This document shows, in pieces, positions 4,514 through 37,740 of a stretch of 38,580 bases of DNA. The position numbers were made by a program, and so were the translations under genes. This DNA is from an uncultured Planctomycetales bacterium. Its GTDB lineage: Bacteria; Omnitrophota; Gorgyraeia; Gygaellales; Profunditerraquicolaceae. The number at the start of each line of letters is the position of its first letter. The stretch's first letter is position 1. A model generated the notes under the pieces. The model ran no database searches. It was not told where the DNA came from and saw only the letters and a list, made by a program, of their open reading frames with translations. The stretch is from positions 1 to 38,580 of the forward strand of contig CAYGZJ010000001.1 of the NCBI GenBank assembly GCA_964354335.1. Direction: 5' to 3'.

Positions 4514-4516
4514 GAT

Positions 4517-7200: not shown

Positions 7201-7210
7201 TAGATATTAA

Positions 7211-7348: not shown

Positions 7349-7360
7349 GAAAATTTGCTG

Positions 7361-7465
7361 GTTTCCCAGTTTATGGCAATATTTTAACCGAAATTATTGC
7401 TAAAAATGGCCAATAATGCCATTAACTAGAAGTCATTAACTAAAGCGCGATTTAGAGATAAAGAG
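7361..7465 (+). repeat. Direct repeat copy 2, on the upstream side of the Ehr-type operon. High-identity core 7410-7465.
   Basis: See copy 1. On the minus strand the core begins immediately after the TAA of the GIY-YIG gene. Confidence 0.85.
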
Positions 7466-7471
7466 GCGGGA

Positions 7472-7750
7472 TTAATCGTGGGATTCGCTTAACTGCATAA
7501 GAAGTGTTTTATCGCCAGATACAAGGGCCGCCTTCTTCTTTTTAGCCCAGCGCTTGATCTGTGCTTCACGTGCTTGCGCACTAGATCTGTTTTGAAACGG
7601 CTCTTTATAAACAACCTCAACCGGCCTGCGATTACTGGTATAATCGCCGCCCTTACCGGCATTGTGCTCGGTTAGTCTGCGGGAAAGGTCGGATGTCGAT
7701 CCAGTGTAAAAACTATTATCTTTACAACGCAGAATATAAACATACCACAT
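7472..7750 (-). CDS. Small GIY-YIG nuclease-superfamily protein (UPF0213/YhbQ-like)
   Basis: YVYILRC..SFYTGSTSDLSRRLTEHN is the GIY-YIG core. I place the start at the ATG at 7750 (MWYVYIL), which has AAGGAG 5 nt upstream. The ORF track extends to 7768. Confidence 0.8.
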   Translation of the reverse strand: MWYVYILRCKDNSFYTGSTSDLSRRLTEHNAGKGGDYTSNRRPVEVVYKEPFQNRSSAQAREAQIKRWAKKKKAALVSGDKTLLMQLSESHD

Positions 7751-7802
7751 ATTGCTCCTTCGACGCACTCGCCTAAACTAAACAACAACTCGCTTGCTCA
7801 GG

Positions 7803-7896
7803 ATGGTTCGCCGCGCCATTATGACAACGCCCTCACCCATTCAGCGCTCACGACAATGGTGAGCAAGCCCGAACGAAGTGAGGGCGCGTCGAACCA
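7803..7896 (-). other. GC-rich nested stem-loop between the tRNA-Gln 3' end and the GIY-YIG gene
   Basis: Three stacked helices are visible: 7803-7815/7885-7897 (13 bp, one mismatch), 7830-7836/7878-7884 (7 bp) and 7846-7851/7859-7864 (6 bp, 7-nt loop). No U-tract follows. Confidence 0.5.
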
Positions 7897-7967
7897 TTGC
7901 CCCGCATGGACTCGAACCATGATAACAAGATCCAGAATCTTGTGTCCTACCATTAGACGACAGGGCA
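7897..7967 (-). tRNA. tRNA-Gln (anticodon CUG)
   Basis: Hand-folded 71-nt cloverleaf. Acceptor UGCCCUG/CGGGGCA (U1-A72), D stem GUCU/GGAC, anticodon stem CAAGA/UCUUG with loop UUCUGGA, T arm CAUGG-UUCGAGU-CCAUG, discriminator A. CCA is not encoded. Confidence 0.85.
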
Positions 7968-7978
7968 GTTATGTAAAA

Positions 7979-8007
7979 AGTATATCGTGGAGAAGATGTT
8001 AAATCAA
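7979..8007 (-). promoter_or_regulatory. Candidate sigma-70 promoter for tRNA-Gln
   Basis: The minus strand reads TTGATT (8007-8002), 17 nt, TATACT (7984-7979). The -10 ends about 11 nt before the tRNA 5' end. Confidence 0.5.
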
Positions 8008-8061
8008 GAAGATTGTTTACGGGGATAACCCTGGTGTCCAAAAAGTGTCCACTGGGAACCT

Positions 8062-8094
8062 GTATAAACAAAAAGGACTCAAACGGTTAAGTCC
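8062..8094 (-). terminator. Weak intrinsic terminator after the zinc-ribbon gene
   Basis: The minus-strand RNA has GGACU(U)...(G)AGUCC, a 5-6 bp stem, followed by UUUUUGUUU. Confidence 0.3.
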
Positions 8095-8119
8095 GGCCCT
8101 TATAAGATTTGCTATGCTT

Positions 8120-8398
8120 TTATTTGTCTACCTTAGACCCTACTTTTTCTCCGGCTTCTACCTTTTCTTTTTTGTCTTCTTTTACATTTTTTACTTCTTT
8201 TACTTCTTCCTTTTTGTTTTCCTTCTTTTCTCCTTTGGAATCTTGATTAACCAAAGGAATTTTTTTATTTTTTTCATCTAAAATTTCCTGACACCTTGAA
8301 CATGCTAATACCCTTCTTCTTTTTTCATTTATAGTCATAACTATTATTTTTAAATAATTATGGGCTAATTTCGTCCCGCATCTTATGCAATTATTCAT
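8120..8398 (-). CDS. Hypothetical zinc-ribbon protein with a Lys/Glu-rich tail
   Basis: 92 aa with CIRC...CSRC (two CxxC pairs) and a C-terminal KE-rich low-complexity region. AAGGAGAG lies upstream of the ATG. Confidence 0.55.
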   Translation of the reverse strand: MNNCIRCGTKLAHNYLKIIVMTINEKRRRVLACSRCQEILDEKNKKIPLVNQDSKGEKKENKKEEVKEVKNVKEDKKEKVEAGEKVGSKVDK

Positions 8399-8447
8399 CT
8401 CGTCTCTCCTTTATCGTCTTGAATTTTCCTTTTTTCTTCTTCCCCAC

Positions 8448-8900
8448 TTATTCCTCTTTTAGAAATTTACATGAATCCATATTTAAATCAAATGTCTTGC
8501 TATCTAGATTTCCTTCGGGGAAAATGAGTGTTAATTTAACAAACATAATTTCCTTTCTTAAATCAAACGTTTTGTATTTTATCCCTTGGGCGGTGAAATC
8601 AATTTCAATAGGATTACCTGCGGGCATTTTGGGAGTAACAACTAGCGATTTCAGTCTATCTGCATCCAGAGAATCTATTTGATCTTTTTTTACAAACTTC
8701 TTGAACTCCTCTAAATTTGCTGGCCAGTTTTTATTTTTATGATAATACTGCACTAAGGCCTTTGTAAGTGGGTTGATGTACTCACCGGCTATTCCTAATC
8801 CTGTATCTGTGCTACCCTCCATACCTGCTCCACAATCTGAAGAATATAATAAAACTACTGATGCCAAGCATATAAGAAGAGATAGTCTTATAATTTTCAT
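8448..8900 (-). CDS. Hypothetical secreted protein
   Basis: 150 aa with an N-terminal signal-like segment MKIIRLSLLICLASVVLLYSS. A strong SD is present (AAAGGAGGAAAGAU-AUG). No recognisable domain. Confidence 0.55.
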   Translation of the reverse strand: MKIIRLSLLICLASVVLLYSSDCGAGMEGSTDTGLGIAGEYINPLTKALVQYYHKNKNWPANLEEFKKFVKKDQIDSLDADRLKSLVVTPKMPAGNPIEIDFTAQGIKYKTFDLRKEIMFVKLTLIFPEGNLDSKTFDLNMDSCKFLKEE

Positions 8901-9150
8901 ATCTTTCCTCCTTTAGCGTATCATACCAAACAAAAAGGCAGCCCCCCATTGAGAGAGTTGGCAATAAACTTTATCTGATTAACCTCATTACCACTCCTTT
9001 GCGATTACACGCTTATTATACTCCTAAATTCCAAAAAATTGTGAGTAATTTGGGAGACACTATCTTAGACTCATAGCCCCACTCCACATACCCCCCCGAC
9101 TAAGTGTCCATAATAGACACCAATTGGCACCAACACACACCAACAGCCAC

Positions 9151-9182
9151 AAAAAAAACTCCGTAAGTGCTTAACGGAGTTT
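9151..9182 (-). terminator. Rho-independent terminator
   Basis: 9156-9164 pairs with 9174-9182 (9 bp, 9-nt loop). An eight-U run overlaps the last two pairs of the 3' arm, leaving six unpaired U (complement of 9151-9156). Confidence 0.75.
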
Positions 9183-9225
9183 GCATTTACAACAAAATCA
9201 ATTATTTATGGAAATTTTCCTTATC

Positions 9226-9359
9226 GATCCCTGAATCTTGCGTCCTACCCCCCCCTCCTTCGCCCTTTTAATCTAAAGTAAGAGATCCGATGGGCTTCGG
9301 GGGGCTGCGCTCGCATATAGCTAACCAAATCTGGCTCGCTTGATTAGACGACAGGGCAG
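9226..9359 (-). pseudogene. tRNA-Gln 5'-half remnant interrupted by a 93-nt insert at the D-loop
   Basis: 9343-9359 is identical (17/17) to 7952-7968. 9226-9249 matches 7929-7951 with two substitutions and one indel. The pieces are separated by 9250-9342. The T arm and 3' acceptor strand are absent. Confidence 0.7.
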
Positions 9360-9385
9360 TAAGGTAATTTCTAGGAGCGGATTGA

Positions 9386-9414
9386 ATTATATATCTCCGT
9401 AGGGATTCTTGCAA
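9386..9414 (-). promoter_or_regulatory. Sigma-70 promoter (minus strand) driving the tRNA-half transcript
   Basis: TTGCAA (9414-9409), 17 nt, TATAAT (9391-9386). Confidence 0.6.
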
Positions 9415-9437
9415 TAGAAATATAAATATGCTATATT
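9409..9437 (+). promoter_or_regulatory. Sigma-70 promoter (plus strand) for the 9498 gene
   Basis: TTGCAA (9409-9414), 17 nt, TATATT (9432-9437). It uses the same palindromic hexamer as the divergent promoter. Confidence 0.55.
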
Positions 9438-9497
9438 GGGTTTGTTCAATAGCAGTGCTATGCGCCTACTGTTAAGAATGCCCTAAGGAGGTCATTA

Positions 9498-9944
9498 ATG
9501 AGAAGACTACAATACGCCGCCTTGGTTTTGTCCTTTCTACTAACCGGCACTTTCATTCTTTACGCTCAATCCGATGCAACATCAGCTAATAAAAAAGGTA
9601 CTGTAAGGCCGCTGCCTATTGTCACCTCATCAACCATTTCTGAAGCCGAAACAGATCAGGACACATTCGGCTATAAGATGGGGCAGGGCGTACTCAACAT
9701 AGCCACTGCCTGGACCGATATCCCCCAACAGATACAGGAAACCTCCAAAGAAAGCAACATCTTCGTGGGTGCCACCGTGGGACTTATCAAAGGGATTTTC
9801 ACCGGACTTTACCGCGGGGTCACCGGGGCAGTCGACGTGGCCACCTTCGGTGTTCCTCCGTATGACGATGCAAAGGCAGAGCCGAGATATACGGTGAAAG
9901 ACCCGGAAAAAGACGGATACAAAGTAAATCTCTTCAACTGGTAA
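9498..9944 (+). CDS. Secreted small protein resembling the exosortase-system-associated TIGR04073 family
   Basis: 148 aa with a signal peptide and an AAGGAGG SD. The pattern KMGQGVLNIATAWTDIPQQI ... GLIKG..TGLYRGVTGAVDVATFGVPP resembles the family signature as I recall it. It is the only plus-strand gene. Confidence 0.5.
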   Translation: MRRLQYAALVLSFLLTGTFILYAQSDATSANKKGTVRPLPIVTSSTISEAETDQDTFGYKMGQGVLNIATAWTDIPQQIQETSKESNIFVGATVGLIKGIFTGLYRGVTGAVDVATFGVPPYDDAKAEPRYTVKDPEKDGYKVNLFNW

Positions 9945-10001
9945 CCGCCAGGACTTCCAACCGAAACACTTCTTTTATTTAATACTTACTAGCTATTTGA
10001 T

Positions 10002-13000
10002 TTATTTTTCAGAGGACTCCATGGTCTTGCGCGCTGCTTCTGAGCGGGTAAGTTCAAACTTATCGAGGAACTTTGACTGGAATTTCTGCATATAGAGGAA
10101 AAGTCCGGGAGTGACAAAAAGCGTGATAATCTGTGAAAATATAAGCCCTCCGACTACGATAAGACCCAGCGGCCGGCGGGATTCTCCGTCAGCTCCGAAG
10201 CCCAACGCAATAGGCACTGCTCCCATGATCGCGGCTAAACCGGTCATCAGGATCGGGCGAAAACGTACAATACAGGCATCATAAATCGCGTCAAAGTCGC
10301 TGACATTTCCCTTGTTAAGATTGGCGTTGGCAAAGTCAACCATCATGATGCCGTTTTTAGCGACGATGCCCAACAACATGAACATGCCGACGTAGCCGTA
10401 AAGCGAAAGCTCTGACCCGCATAAGAAAAGCGTAAGCAGACCTCCGAAAGTAGCCACAGGTAGAGTAGTCAAAATAGTAAGTGGGTGGACATAATTTTCG
10501 TAAAGTATGCCCAGGACTATGTATTTAAGGAAAACAGCGATAATAATCAAAATGCCCAGACTTGCCACCGCCTCCTGAAACTGCTGGGCCTCCCCCTGGA
10601 AGAATCCGGTGACACCCGGAGGAAAAGCCTTAGCTGCCGCATTCTCTAAAGTAGTAGTAGCATTGCCGATCGGAACACCCGGGTCAACATTAAAAGAAAG
10701 TGTCGCAGCATTGAGCTGGTTATAGTGCGGCACATCCTGCGGTCCTACTCCCTGATCCCACTTAGCTATGGCGCTTAAAGGAACAAGATCTCCACTTCTT
10801 CCCCCGTGAGGAACAAGAGCGGCGGTCGACGTAGAATGCATATATATGTGCGAAAGATTCTCCGGATTTTTCTGGAACTTTTTGTCTAGCTCAACAATAA
10901 CATTATAGATATCAACATCCGTCTTAAAGGTAGTGACCTTTCCCTGCGCATAGGATAAGGCCAGGGCATTTTCAATATCCTCGGCAGTGATGCCAAAAGT
11001 TGAAGCCCGGTCACGGTTGATCTTTATATTAAGCTGGGGCATGTTCAGCTTGACGCTGTTTTGCACATCGCGGATACCCGGAAGCTTGCGCATAGTCTTC
11101 TCAAAATCCAAAGCAGTTTTATAAAGCTGGTCCTGATCCGGCCCGGTCAAAACATAGGAATACTTGGCACCCGATGCCGTGCTTTCGGCTCCGGAGCTTA
11201 TTTTTAAGGTCGGAACAGGCTCTAAGAATACAAATCCGCTAGGAATCCTTCCTAGCTGGCCGCGCAACTTTTTGGTGACATCCTGAATATTCTCTTTTCT
11301 TTCTTCAAGCGGTTTCAAAATACTGAAGAAAAACCCTGTGCTCTGATCCGCTCCCGGAGAAAGCCCGGTGACCGTGATAAACCTGTCTACCGCTTTATCA
11401 TTTAAAACTACCTTGTCTATCGTCTGCTGATAAAGCTGCACCTTCTTTGTGGATGTCCCCAGAGGCACCAATATCCCGCCGCTTATAGAGCCGCTATCGC
11501 CTTCAGGAAGAAAGGACTGCGGCAGGACCAGGAAAAAAATAATTGTGCCCACAAAACAAAACACCCAGGCGATAATCGTAGTCATTGGCCGCTTCAGGGT
11601 CCAGGTAAGCCAGACTCCGTATGTATCGATGACATCTTTCATGAATTTATTCATGAATTTCTGCAGTGATTTTTCTTTGGTCTTCCCCTTTTCCTCTAAC
11701 ATGCGCGCGCACATCATCGGCGTAAGGGTCAGGGAAATGACTCCAGAGCAGAGAATCGCCAGGATTACCGTGATCGCAAACTCCTGAAACACCCTTCCTA
11801 CAGTACCGCCCATAAATACCAACGGCACAAAAATGATCGCCAGGGACAAGGTCATGGAAATGATTGTAAAGGTGATCTCCTGCGCGCTCTCAATAGCCGC
11901 GGCTAATGGCTTTTTTCCTTTTTCAACCAGGCGGACTGTATTTTCCAATACGACAATGGCATCATCAACCACAAAACCCACTGAAAGCGTCAGGCCCATC
12001 AGCGAAAGGTTATCGAGGCTGAACCTAAAGACATACATAAGTATGAAGGTGGCAACAATGGATAAAGGCAGGGTGATACTGGGAATGATCGTGTCTGAAA
12101 GGCTGCCCAGAAATAAATAAATGATAAGGATGACCAGGATCAGCGCGATAACAATGGTAAGCTTTACATCATTGACTGAATCCACGATAGTAATGGACTT
12201 ATCGTAGAATATATCCACTTTTACCGAACCGGGAATTTCCTTTTGTAACTGCGCGATTGTCTCCCTGAGACGCTGGGCAAGAGCCACTGTATTAGAGCCG
12301 CCGACACGTGAGATAGCTACTACCACCGTTCCGCCGTGCACTCCCTCTCCAGACTTACCGTAATCGACGCTCATCACGTCATTATCAACGCTATCAATAC
12401 ACCTGCCGATATCCTTAAGTCTTATCGGCGCATTATTGCGGTAGGCGACAATGACATTCTCATAATCCTTAGCCAAGAAAAGCTGTCCCTTGGGCTCGAT
12501 AGAAAATGTGCGTACTTCCCCATTTAAACTTCCTCCAGGAACAGTAACTGTGCCGCTATTAATGGCATTGGCCACTTCGGCGATACCTATCTGGTAGGCG
12601 GACATTTTATTAGGATCAACCTGAACTCGTACCGCGGTCTTTGCGCCCCAGGTCTGCACCTGCGAAACATCCTGCACCATACTCAGGCGCTGGCCGATAG
12701 TCCTGTTCCCAAAATCATAGAGCTGTCCGGAAGTAAGGGTATCAGAGTTAACCAGTAAATACATAATCGGTGTATCGCTAGGATTAGTCTTGGAATAGCT
12801 GGGCGGCGCCGGAAGGTCAGTAGGAAGATTTCCTGTTGCGCGCTGAATTGCCGCCTGCACGTCAGGAGCAGCCAGATCAACGCTGCGGCTGAGCTCAAAG
12901 GTAAGCATGATCTTGGTCTGGCCTTCAGTGTTATCCGAAATAATGGTGTTAAGCCCGGGAATCTGGGTAAACTGATTTTCCAGAGGCGAAGCCACGGTCA

Positions 13001-13181
13001 TAGCCATGGTATTGGGGCTTGCTCCGGGATAAGAGACGCTAACCGTAATAACCGGATAATCAACAACCGGAAGGTCACTGATTGGCAGCTTCATGTATGC
13101 CGCGATGCCAAATATCAACACCACCACCATCACCAGGGTGGTCATGATCGGCTTGCGGATAAAATTTTCCGAGAAATTCAT
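10002..13181 (-). CDS. RND efflux transporter permease (AcrB/HAE1-like)
   Basis: 1059 aa with 12-TM/two-large-loop architecture. The N-terminus FIRKPIMTTLVM and the conserved TM4 region VGFVVDDAIVVLEN are typical. Confidence 0.9.
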   Translation of the reverse strand: MNFSENFIRKPIMTTLVMVVVLIFGIAAYMKLPISDLPVVDYPVITVSVSYPGASPNTMAMTVASPLENQFTQIPGLNTIISDNTEGQTKIMLTFELSRSVDLAAPDVQAAIQRATGNLPTDLPAPPSYSKTNPSDTPIMYLLVNSDTLTSGQLYDFGNRTIGQRLSMVQDVSQVQTWGAKTAVRVQVDPNKMSAYQIGIAEVANAINSGTVTVPGGSLNGEVRTFSIEPKGQLFLAKDYENVIVAYRNNAPIRLKDIGRCIDSVDNDVMSVDYGKSGEGVHGGTVVVAISRVGGSNTVALAQRLRETIAQLQKEIPGSVKVDIFYDKSITIVDSVNDVKLTIVIALILVILIIYLFLGSLSDTIIPSITLPLSIVATFILMYVFRFSLDNLSLMGLTLSVGFVVDDAIVVLENTVRLVEKGKKPLAAAIESAQEITFTIISMTLSLAIIFVPLVFMGGTVGRVFQEFAITVILAILCSGVISLTLTPMMCARMLEEKGKTKEKSLQKFMNKFMKDVIDTYGVWLTWTLKRPMTTIIAWVFCFVGTIIFFLVLPQSFLPEGDSGSISGGILVPLGTSTKKVQLYQQTIDKVVLNDKAVDRFITVTGLSPGADQSTGFFFSILKPLEERKENIQDVTKKLRGQLGRIPSGFVFLEPVPTLKISSGAESTASGAKYSYVLTGPDQDQLYKTALDFEKTMRKLPGIRDVQNSVKLNMPQLNIKINRDRASTFGITAEDIENALALSYAQGKVTTFKTDVDIYNVIVELDKKFQKNPENLSHIYMHSTSTAALVPHGGRSGDLVPLSAIAKWDQGVGPQDVPHYNQLNAATLSFNVDPGVPIGNATTTLENAAAKAFPPGVTGFFQGEAQQFQEAVASLGILIIIAVFLKYIVLGILYENYVHPLTILTTLPVATFGGLLTLFLCGSELSLYGYVGMFMLLGIVAKNGIMMVDFANANLNKGNVSDFDAIYDACIVRFRPILMTGLAAIMGAVPIALGFGADGESRRPLGLIVVGGLIFSQIITLFVTPGLFLYMQKFQSKFLDKFELTRSEAARKTMESSEK

Positions 13182-13184
13182 ACT

Positions 13185-14390
13185 TTACCTTTTCTGTTTT
13201 TGCATCTGCATTTTTTCTTCCATAGCCTTCATCTGAACGGTATCTATGACCCATGCCCCGGGACTTAAACCAAGCTGACCGGCGGTGACTACTCTTTCAC
13301 CCGGCTTAACGCCAGCATATACAACAATATTTCCTTCCTGGCGGTTTCCGGTTTTAACCAGCCTTAAATCTGCTTTGTTATCGGCAGTAACTACAAAAAG
13401 ATAGCTACCACTCTGCCCCAACTGCACCGCATCATACGGCACCTGTATCGCATTTTTTTCTATGCTTAAAATAAGACGGACGGTAACAAATTGTCCGGCC
13501 CATAATTGTCTGTCTTTATTGGAAACGATGGCGCGCAGAAGAAACGTACCGGTGGTGTTATCCACTGCATTATCCAGCAGCGTAAGCTCTCCCGTATAGA
13601 CCTTAGTCGGATCATCGTTAGCCACGATTTCCACTTTAAGCTTTCCCTCGCCCATCGCCTGTCGCACCTTGAACAGATCAGTTTCGGTAACAGTAAAATC
13701 CACATACAGTTCGTCTATGGCCTTGATATTCACCAGCGTCGGTCCGTCATTGGCAGTAATGATATTGCCGAGATCCACCTGGTGTTTTCCACTGCGACCG
13801 TCTACCGGAGAACGGATGTAGCAATATTCCAGATTGATTTTTGCCAGTTCAACTTCCGCGTTATCTAAGCGCACCTGTGCTTCTGCGCTGGACAAATCCA
13901 CGGAATACGTGTCAAAGTCCTGTTTAGAAATAAGCTGCTTATCAGAAAGAACCTTGTTTCTTTCGTAAGTCACCTTCTTGAGCTTCAGGTCAGCCAGGGC
14001 CTGATTCAGACTAGCCCTAGCCTTATCCAGCTGGGCCTTAAAAGTCGCTGGGTCAATGGTAAAAAGCAGGTCGCCCTTTTTTACTTCATCCCCTTCCGTA
14101 AAGTTAATCTCTTTTATCTGGCCGGTAACCTGGGATTTTATATCCACGTCATAAAGCGAATAAAGGTTGCCGAAAGATTCCAGATATACCGGAGCGTCTT
14201 TTGTAAAAGCCAACCCGACTTCTACCGGACGAGGAAAAGCTTCCTGATGCGGTTTCTTATGGAAAACCCCCTTAAAAATAAAAAACCCTCCCGCGATCAC
14301 ACAGGCAATGATAATCATGCGCATGCCCATATTCGACTTTTTTGTCTTAGCCGGCACCGGCGTAATCTCTAATTCTTTTTTATCCATCAT
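13185..14390 (-). CDS. RND efflux periplasmic adaptor (membrane fusion protein)
   Basis: 401 aa with an N-terminal anchor, lipoyl/hairpin/beta-barrel pattern (GQIKEINFTEGDEVKKGDLLFTID). It ends 3 nt upstream of the RND permease gene. Confidence 0.85.
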   Translation of the reverse strand: MMDKKELEITPVPAKTKKSNMGMRMIIIACVIAGGFFIFKGVFHKKPHQEAFPRPVEVGLAFTKDAPVYLESFGNLYSLYDVDIKSQVTGQIKEINFTEGDEVKKGDLLFTIDPATFKAQLDKARASLNQALADLKLKKVTYERNKVLSDKQLISKQDFDTYSVDLSSAEAQVRLDNAEVELAKINLEYCYIRSPVDGRSGKHQVDLGNIITANDGPTLVNIKAIDELYVDFTVTETDLFKVRQAMGEGKLKVEIVANDDPTKVYTGELTLLDNAVDNTTGTFLLRAIVSNKDRQLWAGQFVTVRLILSIEKNAIQVPYDAVQLGQSGSYLFVVTADNKADLRLVKTGNRQEGNIVVYAGVKPGERVVTAGQLGLSPGAWVIDTVQMKAMEEKMQMQKQKR

Positions 14391-16422: not shown

Positions 16423-16866
16423 TCACAAAATCCTTTTCTGCAGAAAAAGTATAAACAAGCCGACTAAAATCTGAATTCCCGCAAAAACTTTAAGCATACG
16501 GATCGGTACTTTCGCAAATTGCTCTGTAAGCTTTCGCAGCGCTTTCTTTCTTAAAAAAATGAATGCCCGGATAATAATAAATACCCCGGCCACGATCAAC
16601 AATATTGAGGCGATGCCCGGGACTTTAGAGCTTAAGGATATAAAAAGCATGGCCACATAAAGAGTAAGAAAAAACAGCGGCCACTTAAGGATCCCGAAGC
16701 TCTGGCTGATCAGCTTATTGCGCGCCCTTTCCGGACGCGCTAAAAACATGGCCCCGGTAATGATCAGAAACCAACCTAAGATTATGATAAAAATCTTGGT
16801 CTTGCCAAAAAGGAAATTAATTAGCTTATAAAATCCTGTTTTAATAAGTTTTAATAAATAAAACAT
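16423..16866 (-). CDS. Hypothetical membrane protein (about 4 TM)
   Basis: 147 aa, hydrophobic. It ends 4 nt before the next gene. Confidence 0.5.
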   Translation of the reverse strand: MFYLLKLIKTGFYKLINFLFGKTKIFIIILGWFLIITGAMFLARPERARNKLISQSFGILKWPLFFLTLYVAMLFISLSSKVPGIASILLIVAGVFIIIRAFIFLRKKALRKLTEQFAKVPIRMLKVFAGIQILVGLFILFLQKRIL

Positions 16867-16884
16867 GTGATTTTCAGATTATGT

Positions 16885-17307
16885 TTATTGAATATTCGAT
16901 ACGGTGTCAGCGCCTGATTTACCAAGCTCTGCTTTTAATGCGGCGTTCTCTTTGGCAAGCGTATTGTTCTCGGCGTTGACCTGCTCCAGCTTCCACTGCA
17001 CATCCTTCAGATCCGCTTCCAGCTCCGCGACCTTATCCTCGCCGGCCTTGACCTTCTCATCCAGATCAGATTTTATCTGAGTGAAATTCTGCTGCAGCTC
17101 TTTTTTGGCTTCCGCATCCCTGCGCAGCGACTCGTTTTCCGCGGCCAATTTCTGGTTTTCCTCATTGACCACATCGATCTGAAACTGCCTTTCCTTGAGC
17201 GCCTGGGCAAGATCATTCCTGTCCTTCAGGAGCAACAAAGAAAAGCTAACGCTGCCTACAATGATGATCCCGCAGATGATGCGGATGATCAATTTCGTGT
17301 TTTTCAT
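16885..17307 (-). CDS. Hypothetical N-terminally anchored coiled-coil protein
   Basis: 140 aa with one N-terminal TM helix and then heptad-rich sequence (..NQKLAAENESLRRDAEAKKELQQ..). Confidence 0.5.
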   Translation of the reverse strand: MKNTKLIIRIICGIIIVGSVSFSLLLLKDRNDLAQALKERQFQIDVVNEENQKLAAENESLRRDAEAKKELQQNFTQIKSDLDEKVKAGEDKVAELEADLKDVQWKLEQVNAENNTLAKENAALKAELGKSGADTVSNIQ

Positions 17308-17310
17308 ATG

Positions 17311-17745
17311 TTAAGAAAAAAGCTCGCGCACTGATTTTCTGCTGAAGAACATATAGAAAAAAACCGGCAGGAAAATCAAAACGATGATACGCAAAATCAA
17401 CGGTACTATTCTTATCGGGAACGTCGGCATCAGATTCTTGGCATGGGCGATAGCGAACACCATCACCCCGCTGACAAGCAGGCCGAATAAAATGGAAACA
17501 GCGCAAAAAACATACAGGGAGTAGCGCGCCCAATGCTTACGATAGAGTATCCCGATACCGGTTACCACAAACCAGATGATAAAAGGGGTTACGGCGTAAA
17601 GAAAGCTATGCGGATCAAAATTTTTCGGAAGCTTGTCTTTAATGGACTCTATGAAGGAAACTGCCATTAGCGAAACCCGCAGAAAATACAACCCGGCAAA
17701 AACAAGATATAAGCCTGTAGCTATAATGATTATTTTTTTTGCCAT
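17311..17745 (-). CDS. Hypothetical membrane protein (about 4 TM)
   Basis: 144 aa, hydrophobic. It ends 3 nt before the next gene. Confidence 0.5.
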   Translation of the reverse strand: MAKKIIIIATGLYLVFAGLYFLRVSLMAVSFIESIKDKLPKNFDPHSFLYAVTPFIIWFVVTGIGILYRKHWARYSLYVFCAVSILFGLLVSGVMVFAIAHAKNLMPTFPIRIVPLILRIIVLIFLPVFFYMFFSRKSVRELFS

Positions 17746-28596: not shown

Positions 28597-30150
28597 TTAC
28601 TTTGCATACTCTATCGCTCTTGTTTCTCGAATAACCGTGACCTTGATCTGCCCGGGATATTCCATACCCTCTTCGATCTTTTTACGGATTTCGCGCGCAA
28701 GATTCACCGCGTCAGGATCAGAAATCTTTTCCGGCTGCACAATAACGCGGATCTCGCGGCCGGCCTGAATGGCAAAGGATTTCTCTACGCCCTTAAAGAG
28801 ATTGGCGATGGACTCGAGTTTCTCCAGGCGCTTGATATAGGTTTCCAGCGTCTCGCGGCGCGCCCCGGGACGGGCAGCGCTGATGGCATCTGCCGCCACT
28901 GCCAAGACCGCGTAAAGACTTTGCACCGGAGCCTCTTCATGATGCGCCTCGATTGCCGAGACGACTTCCGGGGACTCATTGTATTTCTTCGCTAACTCCG
29001 CGCCCAATTTGGCGTGCGTTCCTTCCACCTGATGGTCCACGGCTTTGCCGATATCATGCAAGAGGCCGATGCGCCGGGCAAGTTTAAAATCAAGCCCGAG
29101 CTCTGATGCCATTACCCCCAAAAGAAAAGAAACTTCCTTGGAATGCTGCAGGGCGTTCTGGCCGAAACTGGTGCGGTAGCGAAGGCGGCCCAGCAGCTTG
29201 ATAATCTCCGGGTGCAGACCGTTTACCTGCGCCTCAAAAGCGGCGCGCTCACCTTCCTCGCGGATCTTTTCATCCATCTCTTTCTTAGTCTTCTCGACAA
29301 TTTCCTCGATTCTTCCCGGATGGATCCTTCCGTCGTGAAGCAGTTTCTCAAGGCTAAGGCGCGCGATCTCGCGGCGCACCGTATCAAAAGCCGAAAGCGT
29401 AACTGCCTCCGGGGTGTCGTCAATGATGACATCTACTCCCGTGGCCATTTCTAAGGCGCGGATATTACGGCCTTCCCTTCCGATGACCCTTCCCTTCATC
29501 TCATCATTAGGCAAGGTCACGACACTTACCGTTGATTCAACTGTATGTTCGGCGGCGCAGCGCTGAATGGCGAGGCTGACAACTTCCTGTGCCTTCTTAT
29601 CAACCACACTCTTTAGTTCCTCTTCCTGCCGTTTAATCAATACCGCCTTCTCATTATTCAGTTCCTCATTCAGGCGGCTGAGCAATATCTGTTTTGCCTC
29701 TTCCGCAGAAAGTGAAGAAATTTTCTGCAGGCGCTCTTTCTCTTCGGCGACAAGCGCTACAAGCTGGCCTTCTTTTGCCTTAAGCGCCTCTTCCTGCTTC
29801 CTGACATTATCCTGACGCGTCTCGATTTCCTTTTCTTTCTTCTCCAGGAGATCAAGGCGGCGATCAATATTTTCCTCTTTCTGTGAAAGACGCTTCTCAA
29901 GAACCGTGATTTCCTGGCGCCTATCTTTGGTCTCGCGTTCAAAATCCTGACGCATCCGGTAAAGCAGGTCCTTTGCTTCAAGCTCTACCTCGCGGCGCCT
30001 GTCCTGGGCTTCTTTCTTAGCCTGTTCCAGGATATGCTGCGCCTGAGTTTCCGCGGCTTTGATCTTTTTCTCGGCGATGTGCTTTCGCATAAAGTAGCCT
30101 GCGAAGGCAGCGATTACGCCGATGACAATAAAAATAATGATGTTTAGCAT
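28597..30150 (-). CDS. rny: Ribonuclease Y
   Basis: 517 aa with an N-terminal TM helix, a coiled coil, a KH domain ([15 protein letters not shown]) and an HD domain (LLHDIGKA). Confidence 0.95.
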
Positions 30151-31238: not shown

Positions 31239-31363
31239 AAATTTAAAATTCAAAGTCTAAAATCCAAAATTCAAAACAAATCAAAAGCTAAAAGGTCAAA
31301 ACAAACATTTAAATCTTGAGCTTTGAACTTGTTTTAAATTTTTTACTTTGAATTTTGGACTTT
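31239..31363. repeat. Family-A palindromic element, copy A5
   Basis: It carries the shared 18-mers at 31246-31263 and 31339-31356. The right arm (31343-31363) encodes the last six codons and TAA of the upstream gene. Confidence 0.85.
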
Positions 31364-32017
31364 ATCGCTCGGCATTATCAGCCTATGCGGTTTGGTCGCT
31401 TTCTTAAAATCGCGCGGGCCCCGTATGGCTTTGAAATCTTTGGACTTACCCTGCTTTTCCAGCTCCTTATAAATAAGCACCCAGGCGCAGTCTTTGTCTT
31501 TATCGACCTCACACTTGCCTTTATCCGCGCCGCCGCAGGGACCGTTCAAAAGCCCTTTGGCGCACAGGGTCACCGGACAGATCCCCCCGGTCTCATCCAG
31601 AACGCAATCCCCGCAAAGGGAACATTTCTCATAAAAATTACCTGCGGAATCCATGACCGCGCCAAAAATGGTATTCAGGGCCGGCAACACCGCATGACTT
31701 AATCTGTCATTGTCTTTGACCGACTGCACCCCCAAACCGCAGGCCAAGACCAGGATGGCCTGCGCATCACGCAAGACCGGCATATTCTTAGCCAACTCTG
31801 TCTTAACTTTGGCTGCCACGCAGGGAGCGGAAGGAATACATGTACCGACAATAACCTTACCCTTAGCCTCTAATTCCTGCTTGATCTGGGCCAATTCCGG
31901 CTCCCCTCCGGTCTTACAGGTAGTGGCGCACTCCCCGCAGCCGACCAGGAATATTTTGGTAAAGCCTTTGAGGCTATCTATAATCTCTTCAATGGTTTTT
32001 CGCTCTGATATAATCAC
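31343..32017 (-). CDS. MetV-like protein (methylene-tetrahydrofolate reductase C-terminal-domain family, Cys-rich)
   Basis: 224 aa with CSLCGDCVLDETGGICPVTLCAKGLLNGPCGG..GKCEV, matching the MTHFR_C-type signature as I recall it. It has a GTG start with AAGGGG upstream. Confidence 0.6.
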   Translation of the reverse strand: MIISERKTIEEIIDSLKGFTKIFLVGCGECATTCKTGGEPELAQIKQELEAKGKVIVGTCIPSAPCVAAKVKTELAKNMPVLRDAQAILVLACGLGVQSVKDNDRLSHAVLPALNTIFGAVMDSAGNFYEKCSLCGDCVLDETGGICPVTLCAKGLLNGPCGGADKGKCEVDKDKDCAWVLIYKELEKQGKSKDFKAIRGPRDFKKATKPHRLIMPSDKVQNSK

Positions 32018-32085: not shown

Positions 32086-35000
32086 TTACTGTTCCTTGGC
32101 TTCTCTTGCCTTCTTTTCTTCCACGATCTTCTGGGCGATTTCGGTGGGGACCTGCAGGTACTTGGAGAATTCCATAGTGGCATTGGCGCGCCCGCTGGAG
32201 AGCGAGCGGAATGCCGTGGCATAGCCGAACATCTCAGCTAACGGCGCTTCTGACTCGATGATCTTTTGTTTTCCCTTTGAATCCATATTAAGGATCTTGC
32301 CCCGGCGGGAACAGATATATCCTACGCAGGCGTTCACATATTCTTCCGGAGTAGTCACTACTAATGACATGTATGGTTCAAGCAGGACCGGTTTTGCCCG
32401 CATAAAGATTTCCTTGAAGCCCATTATCGCCGCCATGCGAAAGGCTATTTCCGAAGAGTCGACTTCGTGGTAAGAACCGTCATTAAGATCCACCTTGATA
32501 TCCACTATCGGGTAGCCCGCAAATACCCCCTTCTGCATCGCCTCCACAACCCCCTTCTCCACCGCCGGAATATAGGATTGCGGGATCGCTCCTCCTTTGA
32601 TGCTGTTGATAAAATCCAAACCCTGCCCCTGCGCATTAGGCGAAAGCTCCATCACCACATGGCCGTACTGGCCGCGGCCTCCGGACTGCTTGATGTATTT
32701 ACCTTCCCCCTCCGCCGTCTCCTGAATGGTCTCTCGGTAAGCCACTTTTGGCTGGCCCACAATCGCCTCAACCCCAAACTCTTCCTTGAGCCTATCCACA
32801 ATAATTTCAAGGTGCAGCTCGCCCATACCGGTAAGAATTGTCTCCTTGGTTTCTTCGTCTGTCTGCACCATAAAAGTCGGGTCTTCATCCATCAGTTTTG
32901 CCAGGCCCTTGCCTAATTTATCGCTGTCCCCGCGCGACTTAGGCGCAATACTCAAAGAAACCACCGGCACCGGGAACTGTATCGCCTCAAGCAAAACCGG
33001 TTTTTCCGGATCGCAAAGCGTATCTCCGGTGATGGTGTTGGCTAAACCCGGGATCGCCACGATATCTCCGGCAAAAGCGAAGTCGATATTTTCGCGCTGA
33101 TTGGCATGCATCTGCACGATCCTGCCGATACGCTCTTTTTTGTTCTTGGTGCTGTTTAAAATATATGTGCCTGTGCCTAAAAATCCGGAGTAGACGCGGA
33201 CATAGACAAGCTTTCCCATGTGCGGGTCTGCCTGGACCTTAAAAGCGAGCGCGGTCGGCGGCTCATTGACATCAGGATGAAACTCTATTTCCTTCTCCGG
33301 ATCATCCGGATCGTGCCCTTTTACCGCGGGCATGTCCAGCGGCGACGGCAAATAGAGGACTACCGCGTCCAGAAGTTTCTGCACCCCTTTGTTTTTGAAT
33401 GAGGCGCCGCAAAGCACCGGCACAGCCTTGTTGGCCACTGTACCTTTGCGGATGGCCTGAATGAGCTCTTCCTGGGTGATGGAATTGGCATCCTCCAGAT
33501 ATTTTTTCATCAGGACATCGTCAAAGGCGACTGCCCGCTCAACGAGCGTACGGCGGAATTCCGCTGCCTTCTCTTTTAGGTCCTCGGGGATTTCATCGAC
33601 GGTATACTCCTTGCCCAATGTTTCATCCTGGTAGAAGTAGGCTTTCATTTCGATCAAATCCACCACCCCGCGGAAATTCTCCTCGGCTCCGATAGGAATT
33701 TCCAAAGGCAGGCCGTTACCTTCCAGTATCTGGTCGATCCCATTGACCACTGCGTAAAAATCCGCTCCGGTGCGATCCATCTTATTGATGAAGGCGATCT
33801 TGGGAACGCTGTATTTGTTGGATTGATGCCAGACAGTCTCTGACTGCGGCTCCACTCCGCCGACCGCGCAGAAAACCGCGACTGCGCCGTCTAAAACACG
33901 AAGCGACCGCTCGACTTCGGCGGTAAAATCCACGTGGCCGGGAGTATCGATGATATTGATGCGGTAATCCTTCCAGAAACAGGTGGTGGCCGCGGCGGTA
34001 ATAGTGATGCCGCGCTCGCGCTCCTGCTTCATCCAGTCCATCTGAGTCGCCCCATCATGGACTTCGCCGATTTTATGGGATTTGCCGGTATAAAAAAGGA
34101 TCCTCTCGGTAGTGGTGGTTTTTCCGGCGTCGATATGCGCCATGATCCCGATATTGCGCACCAGGCGTAAATCGATTTTGGGAGTCGGCCGCGCCTGCGG
34201 TTGACGCTTTAATTCTTTTTCTTCTTCCACCTGCGCAGCTTCTTCTGTAGGCGCCTGGACCTCTTCCTGCGGAGGTGTTTCCTGCTTTGCGTATTCTTCA
34301 ACAACCGGTTCTGCTACGGGGACTTCCTGTGGCAATATTTCTTGCGGTATTTCTTGGGGAGCCTCTACTTGCGCAGTTTCTACCTTCGGCGGCGTAAGAA
34401 TATCTTCTTGGACATTCGCCGTTTCAGGCGCAGCGCCAGCCTGATGCTGGAGCCGGCTATTAAGATGCGTGATTTCTTCGGTAAGCAACCTGATGCGTTC
34501 TTCTTTTTCCTCGAATTCTTTTTCTAAAACGCTGAACTCTTCATTTAGTTTATTGAATTCTATCTTTGGCACCCACTCGCTTTCCTTTTCTTTTTTCCTG
34601 TATTCCGTAATGGTGGCTAAATGGGCCTTGATGTCATTGGCCAAGCGCTCGATCTGATGCTTTTGCGCTTCTATCTGGTCAGACTTATCTTTGATTTCTT
34701 TATCCAGCCCCTGGATTTTATCGCTTAGCTCGCGGGCTTCCTTAGACAATCCTACACTTTTAGAAAATTCCCTTTCCAGCTCCTGCTCTTTAGCGCTGAA
34801 CTTTCCCCGCAAGTCCAGGTTTTCCGCCTTTACTTTATCCAGCATTTCTTCGGAGGTAGCCACCCAGTCTTTGCGCCGGTCTAATTCTATTTGCAGCTGG
34901 GCAGCTTGCGCCTTTGCCGGTTCTAGCTCATTCTGCATCTGGACAAAACCGGCTTTAGTTACTTCCAATTCATGCTGGAGCGTAACCACCTGAGCCTGCA

Positions 35001-35172
35001 GCCGCTGTATCCTTTGCTCCTGATAATAAGAATCCGAGCCCGGCTCTTTGGGAAGGGCTTGCCGACGGACGCGACCGGATTTTTCTTCGCTGCTGGCGAA
35101 GAAAAGATAAAGGGAGTATATGATAAGTATAACTCCGCAGACTAAAATAATCGGCACAAGAATATTATTCAT
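32086..35172 (-). CDS. Elongation factor G fused to a 332-aa N-terminal TM / coiled-coil / acidic-linker extension
   Basis: aa 333-1028 form a complete EF-G. Motifs present are [31 protein letters not shown] and [10 protein letters not shown]. aa 5-26 form a TM helix followed by KSGRVRRQ. aa ~50-240 are heptad-rich. aa ~245-330 are P/E/Q-rich. There is no in-frame stop anywhere. Confidence 0.8.
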
Positions 35173-35196: not shown

Positions 35197-35589
35197 TTAA
35201 AAAGGCATGAAGTCCAGCGGCCGGGTGGAATTCCTACTCTGCATAGCCTCGGCCATTTTAGCCTGTAGACGCTTGATCACATGGATCACTATATCTTTAT
35301 TCGTATCCACAAACTCAACACCCACGGTATAAAATGTCGAACGCTGCGATTGCGGGACATTGACATATTTGATCCTTCCTGTCCCTTGCAGCGGCCGTTC
35401 CAGAATAGGCGCCGTCAACTCAAATTCAACGATTGTCTCCGGCTCGATTTTTTCCGCGGCAAACATGCCAAAACCCACAAAGCTGATATTATCCAGAAAC
35501 GCTTTGAAGGCAACCGGAGAGCCGTTCTGGCTGATAATGCGGATATCTCCGTCGACCTTCAACCGGTCATAGCCTCTTCTTTCCTGCAC
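35197..35589 (-). CDS. PilZ-domain (c-di-GMP-binding type) protein
   Basis: It has RRGYDR (RRxxxR) and DNISFVG (D/NxSxxG). I place the start at the GTG at 35589, which has GAAGGAGA 6 nt upstream. The ORF-track ATG at 35664 would overlap the upstream gene by 62 nt. Confidence 0.75.
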   Translation of the reverse strand: MQERRGYDRLKVDGDIRIISQNGSPVAFKAFLDNISFVGFGMFAAEKIEPETIVEFELTAPILERPLQGTGRIKYVNVPQSQRSTFYTVGVEFVDTNKDIVIHVIKRLQAKMAEAMQSRNSTRPLDFMPF

Positions 35590-35602
35590 GGATAATCTCC
35601 TT

Positions 35603-36052
35603 CTATAGCCCCTGCATCGCGTTAATAACTTTTTGTGACACTCCCTGCTCTTTAAGGTAATCAAGGTCTGCCTGCGTCAGGGTGAACTTGGAATTGCTCA
35701 GGCGGATCTTATCGACAATGACGTCTTCATGAACTCCCTGCTTAGCAAGATCTACGATCTGCTGCATGGACATCTGGCTTGGGTTAACCCCGCCCTGCGT
35801 TCCCTGTCCTGCATTTTTGTTCTTATTCATTTGTCCGCCAATAAGCCCACCGGCAAGAGCGCCGGTAACCGCCCCAATAGCAGCGCCTTCGGCGCCATGA
35901 TGCCCGGTTGCGGTACCGATACCATATCCGGCTCCTGCGCCCAATACGCCGCCGATTATAGCTCCCTCTGTCGCGCGTGTCTGCGTGTTCTGGCAGCCAA
36001 CTGTCAATAAGCCGATTGCCGCGATAATAATTATGACTAATAATTTCTTCAT
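35603..36052 (-). CDS. Glycine-zipper lipoprotein with a C-terminal tandem helical motif
   Basis: 149 aa with lipobox LTVGC and GAIIGGVLGAGAGYGIGTATG...GALAGGLIGG. The C-terminus holds two ~25-aa repeats (QQIVDLAKQGVHEDVIVDKI / DLDYLKEQGVSQKVINAM). Confidence 0.6.
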   Translation of the reverse strand: MKKLLVIIIIAAIGLLTVGCQNTQTRATEGAIIGGVLGAGAGYGIGTATGHHGAEGAAIGAVTGALAGGLIGGQMNKNKNAGQGTQGGVNPSQMSMQQIVDLAKQGVHEDVIVDKIRLSNSKFTLTQADLDYLKEQGVSQKVINAMQGL

Positions 36053-37377
36053 CTGCTGTCTCCTTTCAGCTTCTCCATCCGCTGTTTGATTTTAGACTCA
36101 TGGCCGATATCTGTCGGCTCATAATAACGGACTTTCTTTCGCGTATATTTTTGATCCACGTAATGGCCTTCAAAATCATGGGCATACTTATAACCTTTGC
36201 CGTGGCCCAGGCCGTCTCCATCAGCAGTTTTGTCTTTTAAATGATCCGGCACTTCCTGTACCCTCTTATTTTCGATATCCGAGAGGGCTTTGTCAATAGC
36301 TAAATAGCTGGCATTGGATTTGGGCGCGCAGGAGACATAAATACATGCCTGGGCCAGAGGAATACGCGCCTCGGGCATTCCTACGAATTCCGAAATCTGC
36401 AATGCCGCGTTTGCCAGGACTAGCGCTAAAGGATCGGCATTACCGACATCCTCCGCTGCAAGGATACAGATGCGCCGGGCGATAAAACGCGGGTCCTCAC
36501 CGGCATAAAGCATTTTTGCCATCCAGTATATCGCCGCATCGGGATCTGACCCGCGCATGGACTTGATGAACGCCGAGGCAGTGTCGTAATGCGCGTCTTC
36601 ATCGTGATCATAGACCACCGCTTTTTTCTGAATGGACTCTTCTGCTACCGCGAGAGTAAAATCAATAAATCCTTCTTTTGTCTTTGGCGTAGTAAGCGAT
36701 CCGACCTCAAGTGCGTTTAGAGCCCGGCGCGCATCGCCTTCGCAAGTTTTTGCCAAAAACATCAGCGCCTTTTTATCGATCTTTATCTTAAGCTCTCCTA
36801 GCCCGCGCGTTTTTTCCTTTAACGCGGCGCCCAGGATCTCGGCGATTTCGCTATCTTTAAGCGCTTTTAATTCGCAGACTACTGAGCGCGAAACAAGCGG
36901 GGCAGCAATGGAAAAATATGGGTTATGGACTGTGGCGCCGATTAAAATAGGATTGCCTTCTTCGATGTCCGGCAAAAGCACATCCTGCTGGGCTTTATTA
37001 AAACGGTGGATCTCGTCGATAAAAAGGATGGTTTTTGTGCCGGCATTGGCCTTGCGCTGCTTGGCTCCGGAAATCGCGCGGCGCAATTCTTCTACATTGG
37101 AAGTGGTGGCGTTTATAGAAACATAGTAGGCTTTGGTGACATGGGCGATGCACCAGGCAAGGGAGGTCTTGCCGCATCCTGGAGGGCCGTAAAGAATAAG
37201 AGAGCTTAAGCGATCCGCCTCAATAGCCCGGCGCAAGAGTTTACCCTGGCCTAAAATATGCTCCTGGCCGATAAACTCATCAAGCGCCGCCGGCCGCATG
37301 CGCACGGCCAAAGGCAGATTTTTCAAGTCTTTTGGCTTTTCTGTTTCGAATAAATCCACTGAGGAAAGCGCTTTCAT
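36049..37377 (-). CDS. rarA: Replication-associated recombination protein A (AAA+ ATPase)
   Basis: 442 aa with Walker A GPPGCGKTSLA, DEIHRFNKAQQD, and the MgsA C-terminal region (YDTASAFIKSMRGSDPDAAIYW). Confidence 0.9.
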   Translation of the reverse strand: MKALSSVDLFETEKPKDLKNLPLAVRMRPAALDEFIGQEHILGQGKLLRRAIEADRLSSLILYGPPGCGKTSLAWCIAHVTKAYYVSINATTSNVEELRRAISGAKQRKANAGTKTILFIDEIHRFNKAQQDVLLPDIEEGNPILIGATVHNPYFSIAAPLVSRSVVCELKALKDSEIAEILGAALKEKTRGLGELKIKIDKKALMFLAKTCEGDARRALNALEVGSLTTPKTKEGFIDFTLAVAEESIQKKAVVYDHDEDAHYDTASAFIKSMRGSDPDAAIYWMAKMLYAGEDPRFIARRICILAAEDVGNADPLALVLANAALQISEFVGMPEARIPLAQACIYVSCAPKSNASYLAIDKALSDIENKRVQEVPDHLKDKTADGDGLGHGKGYKYAHDFEGHYVDQKYTRKKVRYYEPTDIGHESKIKQRMEKLKGDSR

Positions 37378-37431
37378 TTTACCTTAAAAATTTAGCCCCT
37401 CGGCTGAAGGGCTTTTACCCCTCGCCTAAGC

Positions 37432-37462: not shown

Positions 37463-37740
37463 AGGCTTCGGGGTATTTTACATACTCTGGCTACTGCGGG
37501 TAAAATAAAAATCCCCGCATTGTGCCGTTGGATAGACAGTCTGAACCGATTTGGTTTCAGGTGGGTGCCGCTCTTGAATGCCTAAGCGCTCAAGAAGTTG
37601 AGGCCCCCAGATAGTTAGTGTTGGTTCAACAATTATCAAATTTCCAACGCGCACCGCAGGGATTTTTAAAAGAGCTTTGTCTTGCGAAAGAAGTATACCA
37701 TATATATAAAAGGAAATCAACCCGCTTATTTTTCAAGCAC

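Follow-up and report, generated by a model that had tools for sequence, protein, structure and literature searches.

An elongation factor G with a predicted membrane anchor, coiled-coil stalk, and disordered spacer in Candidatus Omnitrophota

The window analyzed here was the whole 38,580-nt stretch (positions 1 to 38,580, forward strand) of contig CAYGZJ010000001.1 from an uncultured bacterium assigned to the Omnitrophota (GenBank assembly GCA_964354335.1). At 32086..35172 on the minus strand, it harbored an open reading frame (ORF) of 1028 amino acids (aa) plus stop, with an ATG start and zero internal stops, which encoded a canonical elongation factor G (EF-G) preceded by an N-terminal extension of about 335 aa with the structure transmembrane (TM) helix–basic segment–coiled coil–disordered spacer. 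This protein, designated tethered EF-G here, was real, ancient, and widespread in one uncultured phylum, and it was often mis-annotated (see below).

The canonical EF-G core (aa 333-1028; 32086..34176, minus strand) was delimited by Pfam, NCBIfam, PDB alignment, and AlphaFold2 (pLDDT 80-93). It contained the five EF-G domains in order (PF00009, PF22042/PF03144, PF14492, PF03764, and PF00679; residues 338-1015 in Pfam): (i) G domain GTP_EFTU plus G′ insertion at aa 338-610 (33343..34161, minus strand; PF00009, 1.4e-65), (ii) EF-G domain 2 at aa 640-721, (iii) domain III at aa 733-806, (iv) domain IV at aa 808-927 (32392..32751, minus strand; PF03764, 1.2e-45), with both tip loops GGRGQYGH and DGS.H.VDSS invariant, and (v) the C-terminal domain at aa 929-1015. 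The NCBIfam EF-G equivalog TIGR00484 matched residues 332-1021 over profile positions 4-690 of 691 with 1050.3 bits (cut-off, 659.4), while all paralogue models of NCBIfam, those for Tet(M)/(O)/(Q) included, stayed under their cut-offs (EF-G2, 507 versus 890; tet_protect, 384 versus 775; RF3, 250 versus 473; LepA, 169 versus 534; and BipA, 228 versus 757); zero Pfam/NCBIfam matches to the SRP54-type NG domain of FtsY, the signal recognition particle (SRP) receptor, were found in the protein, whose likeness to FtsY is functional only. In the comparison with solved structures, the core aligned end to end with the EF-Gs of T. thermophilus (868 bits) and E. coli (852 bits) at about 60% identity, and Thermus EF-G2 gave 423 bits. 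GTPase motifs G1 to G4, the switch II catalytic His, and the domain IV tip loops were invariant in an alignment of 69 homologues. The core began with P.P[KR].[SD]L[ED]K[TV]RNIG, which was the usual EF-G N-terminus minus the start codon; free (untethered) copies started with MARxIELxKVRNIG.

By each sequence and structure criterion tested, the window protein was an EF-G family member, and it was a member of none of the EF-G2, Tet, RF3, LepA, and BipA families; these results bore out an earlier reading made from the letters of the window only (hereafter the sequence-only reading), which had described a complete EF-G with its GTPase motifs and both domain IV tip loops and had set it apart from Tet(M), RF3, and LepA. 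The EF-G head was probably an active translocase, given its canonical core, strong purifying selection, and the L9-EF-G chimeras on ribosomes (PDB 4WPO, 4WQF, and 5HAU), whose solved structures demonstrated that an N-terminally fused EF-G binds and is tolerated on the ribosome, although these chimeras are artificial, joined to a ribosomal protein, and built for crystallography.

The extension was divided into six parts on the minus strand: (i) a TM anchor at aa 5-26 (35095..35160), with a predicted N-out/C-in orientation, an AlphaFold2 helix of pLDDT 85-94, and a Kyte-Doolittle 19-residue maximum of 2.75; (ii) a juxtamembrane basic disordered segment at aa 27-46 (35035..35094; pLDDT <50), with a K/R patch conserved in the alignment; (iii) coiled-coil helix 1 at aa 47-198 (34579..35034; about 22.5 nm, pLDDT 92-98, coherent 3.5-residue period), carrying the conserved motifs EQKIxRLE, RRxEWVAKSEEML..KVKEENL.LKNKF..KEKELQEEF.KNVNL, and QIExQKHQIEK; (iv) the kink motif S-E-W-V-P-K at aa 198-203 (34564..34581), the most conserved element of the stalk, with a helix break at 199-202, W200 and K203 invariant, and S198, E199, V201, and P202 conserved in at least 90%; (v) coiled-coil helix 2 at aa 203-244 (34441..34566; about 6 nm), recognized from AlphaFold2 and the period, with F206, L209, N210, E212, E217, and E233 invariant; and (vi) an acidic Glu/Pro/Gln disordered spacer at aa 245-332 (34177..34440; pLDDT about 35-42), whose sequence and length varied across the family. 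The spacer of the window had about 90 aa, was rich in E, P, and Q, and had a net charge of -13; family spacers contained 22% E, 14% P, and 11% K, with a median length of about 95 aa. The AlphaFold2 predictions were made with family alignments. In the 37-sequence extension alignment, W103 and P331 were invariant in addition to W200, K203, and the six residues of helix 2, and E217 was only nearly invariant in the 69-sequence full-length alignment.

Hydrophobic positions kept a 3.5-residue period in register over aa 47-198 (power 2.47 versus a median of 0.06), which marks a true coiled coil and not an amphipathic helix, and the spacer displayed no such period. Around the TM helix of the window, there were zero K/R residues before and five in the next 20 residues, and the medians over 88 distinct extensions were likewise 0 and 5; under the positive-inside rule, an established principle, this distribution points to an N-out/C-in helix with stalk and EF-G in the cytoplasm. 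By arithmetic, the two helices would form a rod of about 29 nm (0.148 nm per residue), followed by a spacer with a contour of about 30 nm and a typical span of about 8-9 nm. Comparison of the extension with Pfam and PDB gave sub-threshold generic coiled-coil matches only, and no real relative. The layout proposed by the sequence-only reading was thereby recovered in all its parts: a TM helix followed by a coiled coil to about aa 240 (AlphaFold2 helices 5-26, 47-198, and 203-244), an acidic Pro/Glu/Gln linker of about 90 aa (disordered at aa 245-330), and a protein placed in the cytoplasm by the positive-inside rule.

Homologous loci (each the match plus and minus 10 kb) were compared with the window. 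The fused frame was present in 61 of the 81 classified loci and in the 84 distinct tethered sequences of the final tree, and the fast-evolving spacer was in frame in all fused loci but one (L082). Each of the 88 distinct extensions opened with a hydrophobic helix, 81 of them from an ATG start, and the extension was conserved as a protein (32-49% identity). Within the last 30 codons before RNIG, no ATG, GTG, or TTG was conserved, and none of the three occurred at all in over half of the loci; the window had two GTG codons there, one of them one codon before RNIG, and zero ATG, just as the sequence-only reading had observed. With no conserved start before RNIG, EF-G would be producible only within the long protein. 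Shine-Dalgarno (SD)-like motifs were found at 50 of the 88 tethered-gene starts and at 330 of 891 other long ORFs, so the weak ribosome-binding site of the window gene was unremarkable.

Many proteins in GenBank, called by the Prokaryotic Genome Annotation Pipeline (PGAP), were 693-718 aa long and about 99.86% identical to the long ORFs, with the sole mismatch at residue 1, which indicated that PGAP had taken a non-ATG internal codon as the start; about 1 kb upstream of such genes was left without annotation (L083 to L087, e.g., 7027-8000 of L083). One cluster contained both a 1026-aa ORF and the nr entry MBI4982225.1 (698 aa), the gene calls of JGI, ENA, and Logan assemblies were full length, and named database entries all read 'elongation factor G'. 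An artefact, in which either a membrane protein and fusA were read as one or EF-G was made from an internal start, could appeal to the short PGAP products and to the separate frames of stalk and EF-G in L082, but it was essentially refuted by the frame kept open through the fast-evolving spacer, the lack of a conserved start, the non-ATG starts and unannotated 1-kb stretches of the PGAP genes, and the protein-level conservation of the extension, including invariant W103 and W200. An assembly frameshift joining two genes and initiation at the core, both named by the sequence-only reading as possible undoing of its claim, were rejected as follows: more than 100 independent genomes carried the fusion, and no start codon was conserved for an internal start or a dual product.

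L082 (7100-10136) was a case of its own: stalk (314 aa) and EF-G (711 aa) lay in different frames with a 44-nt overlap at an A8 run (8003-8012), and this split product was identical in a JGI and an ENA assembly; it could represent a true split gene or a transcriptional/+1 slippage site.

In a search of about 5.8 billion proteins, the matches numbered more than 120 clusters, each of about 990-1050 aa, at 61-69% identity and 98-100% query coverage (61-80% identity for the full-length homologues of all searches), and the extension profile together with further scans recovered the same fusion from about 100 species-level genomes or more, nearly all of Candidatus Omnitrophota. Viral contigs gave no match when scanned with the single protein, and unrelated EF-Gs only when scanned with the alignment. 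Full-text literature searches found no description of a membrane-anchored EF-G, and EF-G figured in the ComFB paper merely as a loading control. The sequence-only reading had regarded the architecture as undescribed and had proposed a search for homologues: no paper on it was indeed found and the architecture was conserved, but the databases already held a large family under the name 'elongation factor G', and the window protein was no one-off but a member of a large monophyletic paralogue family across the Omnitrophota.

Tethered EF-G contigs were also present in metagenome-assembled genomes (MAGs) labelled Methanosarcinales archaeon (JAIWAR01, with L129/L132), Deltaproteobacteria (L117), and Margulisiibacteriota (L073); these were likely mis-binned or mislabelled, and the Methanosarcinales case could be an epibiont co-binned with its host. 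MAG JAZDPH01 harbored two different tethered EF-G loci (L004 and L010), which could mean a genuine second copy or a mixed bin.

The 84 tethered cores formed one clade (neighbor-joining bootstrap 48/50, with str-operon EF-Gs of other phyla as the outgroup), and the window sequence was placed within it. Free EF-Gs with a 10-residue N-terminus were recovered from Omnitrophota and Auribacterota by a scan for EF-G cores. The tethered and free types shared 65-67% identity, each had a mean within-type identity of about 72.5%, and their identities to str-operon EF-Gs of other phyla were 56% and 61%, respectively. They differed in the C-terminal signature (A[ST]MEF.KY in the tethered type versus Y[ST]MHFEKY in the free type) and in a handful of type-specific substitutions, which were conservative and occurred in none of the functional motifs. 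The window protein displayed all marks of the tethered clade (TM helix, EWV.K stalk motif, acidic spacer, and core with A[ST]MEF.KY) and lacked those of a housekeeping fusA product, namely the str gene order and a soluble product of about 700 aa whose first residue lies about 10 positions ahead of RNIG.

Both types coexisted on the same contig in three loci: L159, where they lay 5 kb apart (2003-5113 and 7989-10076); L211; and L271, where, on the minus strand, the free EF-G (5578-7671) immediately preceded the tethered one (2007-5249). Three MAGs (JAHJCI01, JAIWAR01, and CAZABB01) likewise contained both, giving at least six genomes with the two types, and JAQTOI01 and JAQUOR01 probably did too. 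All coexisting cases were basal tethered lineages. The tandem or near arrangement of free and tethered genes was consistent with an origin by tandem duplication; in the simplest history, the free EF-G of the phylum would have been duplicated once and the copy then fused behind a pre-existing membrane coiled-coil gene.

The crown group shared the upstream gene order (thrS–infC–rpmI–rplT–pheS–pheT)–rarA–(Gly-zipper lipoprotein–PilZ)–stalk–EF-G and the downstream order (PPIase [peptidyl-prolyl isomerase])–(uvrD)–DUF5981–nifU–5-formyltetrahydrofolate (5-FTHF) cyclo-ligase–rny–ymdB. In the window, the conserved upstream neighbor rarA/mgsA was located at 36049..37377 and the conserved downstream neighbor DUF5981 at 31343..32017, both on the minus strand. 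Between rarA and the tethered EF-G gene lay a PilZ-domain gene (35197..35664, minus strand; likely GTG start at 35589 after AAGGAG), with its stop 24 nt before the EF-G ATG; a PilZ gene was found at this locus only in the window and its near relatives L001, L003, and L010. The basal lineages had no conserved neighbor of the tethered EF-G (FabZ, nitroreductase, L13–S9, CBS, and rhodanese were seen). No S12, S7, or EF-Tu gene was found by tblastn in the window or next to any of the Omnitrophota EF-G loci examined, whether tethered or free, although the same tblastn found them beside EF-G in Bacilli, Vicinamibacteria, and Methylococcales; the absence of an rpsL–rpsG–fusA–tuf context from the window, claimed by the sequence-only reading, thus held.

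The stalk also occurred apart from its head. A stalk-only locus with the same synteny was identified in 17-19 genomes, where a stalk gene of 250-400 aa with its own stop was followed by PPIase and uvrD. On the stalk tree, these genomes made up one derived clade of 16 species, nested in the fused diversity, plus the separate L065, indicating by phylogeny that the EF-G head was deleted at least twice with the stalk kept. L028 was rejected as a further head loss, since its stalk gene stood alone in a different context. Taken together with the coexistence of both types, these losses make the tethered EF-G more likely an additional, specialized EF-G than the cell's only one.

A stalk profile search recovered 327 representatives (E ≤1e-3). 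Many of these relatives stood alone (215-400 aa; TM helix, basic patch, coiled coil, and a [ST].W[VI][SA]K.E[YF]..L motif) and matched no Pfam family; distant ones among them measured 215-235 aa. Three (P0241, P0280, and P0301) ended not in EF-G but in MshEN or MshEN plus PilZ domains, which are receptors for cyclic di-GMP (c-di-GMP); they resembled the stalk only across the TM helix and coiled coil, a likeness that may in part reflect composition. This collection suggests a membrane stalk with exchangeable heads, to which c-di-GMP is possibly linked, as a lead only. The N-terminal extension of the sequence-only reading was therefore real, but it corresponded to a membrane coiled-coil protein that predates the fusion and is also encoded by itself. 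Two stand-alone copies away from the rarA locus, a 285-aa gene with all motifs beside pyruvate kinase (L028, 1320-2177) and, close to a tethered EF-G, a distant copy of 218 aa (L118, 8039-8695), showed that the stalk family has paralogues of its own.

With moderate confidence, we favor the reading that the tethered EF-G is a second, spatially restricted, probably oligomeric translocase for ribosomes near the membrane. The N-out/C-in TM helix would anchor the stalk of about 29 nm at the cytoplasmic face of the inner membrane. The stalk is probably a parallel homo-oligomer (dimer or trimer), as suggested by a heptad register that runs without a break and has the anchors at one end, and it would thus present two or more EF-G heads. 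The disordered spacer of about 90 residues would let each head explore a zone some 30-60 nm beneath the membrane, and the tether would keep the local EF-G concentration high for ribosomes at or near the membrane, e.g., those engaged in co-translational insertion or secretion, with the remaining translation served by another, untethered EF-G. The sequence-only reading had proposed that such a leash could bias elongation by membrane-proximal ribosomes, a conjecture about its function. That the source genome has such another EF-G is quite probable, as judged by comparison with its relatives. The stalk-only genomes would need another EF-G because the head was deleted from their locus. Among the best 80 loci of the EF-G core scan, which re-found 32% of the known fused genomes and thus gave statistical negatives, a relocated tethered-type EF-G was seen in the stalk-only clade 0 times versus about 6 expected, and the free-type signature was found in no stalk-only genome among the matches listed (see below); the EF-G of these genomes would therefore be of a third kind. 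By parsimony, the crown ancestor, and so probably the source genome, would have had this third EF-G. S12–S7–EF-G–EF-Tu operons occur in several complete Omnitrophota chromosomes (2026 preprint 10.64898/2026.06.07.730766). Within the approximately 3 Mb of fetched loci, no str operon or third EF-G was found in those of Omnitrophota.

Several observations weigh against this second-translocase reading. Omnitrophota cells are about 0.2 μm across (PMC10066038). A shell of 30-60 nm would by arithmetic take up about 70-90% of the volume of a 200-nm cell, so the spatial restriction may be weak, and the tether would enrich EF-G around membrane-bound ribosomes while most other ribosomes stayed accessible; the values for oligomeric state and reach are themselves geometric estimates. 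No Sec, YidC, or SRP gene was linked to the tethered EF-G, and the basal contexts were mutually unrelated. A scan for the free-type C-terminal signature (120 matches listed, from about 72 Omnitrophota genomes) recovered it from 5 of about 20 basal tethered lineages and from 0 of about 100 crown-group genomes among the matches listed; the free type thus seems, by this signature, to be lost in the crown group, and the tethered copy may be the sole member of its EF-G lineage in the source genome. The core was also as conserved as that of the free type, which a sole housekeeping EF-G would equally show. These last points lead to the main rival, in which crown Omnitrophota rely on the tethered protein as their main or sole EF-G, for all translocation and ribosome recycling. 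We consider this less likely than not: a fully canonical core, the housekeeping neighborhood thrS–infC–rpmI–rplT–pheST–rarA, the feasibility of such service at so small a cell diameter, and the absence of a str operon around every Omnitrophota tethered or free locus, in a search that works in other phyla, all suit it, but the head was cleanly deleted at the same crown locus in the 16-species clade and L065, the genomes so affected yielded neither a relocated tethered-type EF-G nor the free signature in the scans above, another EF-G type is most simply placed already in the common ancestor, and the operons of the preprint exist in some complete chromosomes of the phylum. It is unlikely that the crown group, the source genome included, lost its free EF-G and was left with the membrane-anchored protein as the only translocase; if true, each elongation and recycling event in 200-nm cells would depend on a membrane-bound factor, and bacterial translation would be physically organized by the envelope.

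Less likely than a sole EF-G are regulated release, a change in the role of the head, and the artefact dealt with above. Under regulated release, the tether would serve storage, keeping EF-G from most ribosomes until it is freed by proteolysis of the spacer or by c-di-GMP acting via PilZ, much as E. coli LepA/EF4 is reportedly sequestered at the membrane. The long, protease-accessible disordered spacer, the PilZ gene 24 nt upstream, the stalk-like proteins fused to MshEN and PilZ domains, and the split frames of L082 fit this scheme; we nevertheless consider it improbable, since the PilZ adjacency was confined to a small subclade, no conserved protease site or protease gene was found, a reach of 30-60 nm scarcely sequesters anything in a 200-nm cell, and the likeness to the MshEN/PilZ proteins was confined to a coiled coil of perhaps partly compositional similarity. 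A changed role, in which the head would dock or park ribosomes (hibernation or anchoring) or serve recycling/rescue only, is given a similarly low probability: EF-G paralogues with split functions exist in spirochaetes and others, the tethered clade was slightly more diverged from the EF-Gs of other phyla (56% versus 61%, as above), and some lineages dispensed with the head, but all catalytic and decoding-centre motifs were invariant, the few type-specific substitutions were conservative and outside the functional motifs, and TIGR00484 was matched far above its cut-off where the EF-G2 models failed.

The second-translocase reading was set beside known systems. Canonical EF-G (fusA; T. thermophilus 1DAR/4V5F and E. 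coli 4V7B) has the same five-domain fold, motifs, and tip loops, while the tethered one adds the TM/coiled-coil/spacer extension, sits outside the str operon, and forms its own clade. EF-G2 copies (Thermus/Mycobacterium EF-G2, spdEFG1/2, and Bacteroidetes EF-G2) are alike in being an extra EF-G beside another, but they are soluble and diverged and fail the equivalog model that the tethered EF-G satisfies. FtsY has an acidic A domain and, in some bacteria, a TM anchor, and LepA/EF4 is membrane-stored; both resemble the tethered EF-G as translation-apparatus GTPases at the cytoplasmic membrane, FtsY also in its acidic N-terminal region, whereas the tethered EF-G has neither the NG domain nor the LepA C-terminal domain, is joined covalently to a TM helix and long coiled coil, and would be the translocase itself. 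TonB and TolA, each built from a TM helix at the N-terminus, a long spacer that is helical or Pro/Glu/Lys-rich, and a globular domain at the C-terminus, share the anchor–spacer–head plan that gives a defined reach from the membrane, but the predicted topology of the tethered EF-G is opposite (head cytoplasmic), and there is no sequence relationship. RNase Y, encoded in the same operon-like run of the window (28597-30150, minus strand), is likewise an RNA-machinery enzyme on its own N-terminal TM helix plus coiled coil (PF12072); it is a different enzyme, its stalk is much shorter, and it has no disordered spacer.

In textbooks, EF-G is a factor that diffuses freely, and its ribosome search is treated as a diffusion problem. 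A lineage-wide EF-G anchored on a stalk of defined length would be a natural experiment in the spatial organization of translation and would show a translocase working while tethered; it would also give a handle on how membrane-bound ribosomes are supplied in ultra-small cells making giant secreted proteins, and a ready-made design for localizing translation factors. The cut to about 700 aa in GenBank is a systematic annotation error, which hides the family from users of deposited proteins. The stalk is an uncharacterized membrane protein family, for which the c-di-GMP receptor heads suggest a modular exchangeable-head system in the phylum.

Further features were observed in the window and related loci. 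RNase Y and the tethered EF-G made two predicted membrane-tethered RNA-machinery enzymes within 5 kb. Upstream of rarA, a 6S RNA was present at 37508-37665 (minus strand; Rfam RF00013, 63 bits), with a terminator-like hairpin after it at 37394-37413. Window positions of about 7200-9950, flanked by an Mrp/Nuo-like membrane complex on one side and an AcrB-type efflux operon on the other, were AT-rich and gene-poor (GC 0.34 at 8001-9000) and contained tRNA-Gln at 7897-7967 (minus strand) and two Pfam-less ORFs at 8448-8900 (minus strand) and 9498-9944 (plus strand). Three small ORFs of 147, 140, and 144 aa, none above the Pfam cut-off, stood in a row at 16423-17745 (minus strand), the middle one (140 aa) with a weak YabA-like coiled-coil match. 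L082 had a 276-aa ORF with a faint LAGLIDADG match (11293-12123) between the nifU and 5-FTHF cyclo-ligase genes. In L085, two genes downstream of the tethered EF-G, an ORF that exceeded 2692 aa and carried a Metallophos domain (9014-14094) ran past the end of the locus, recalling the giant proteins reported for the phylum.

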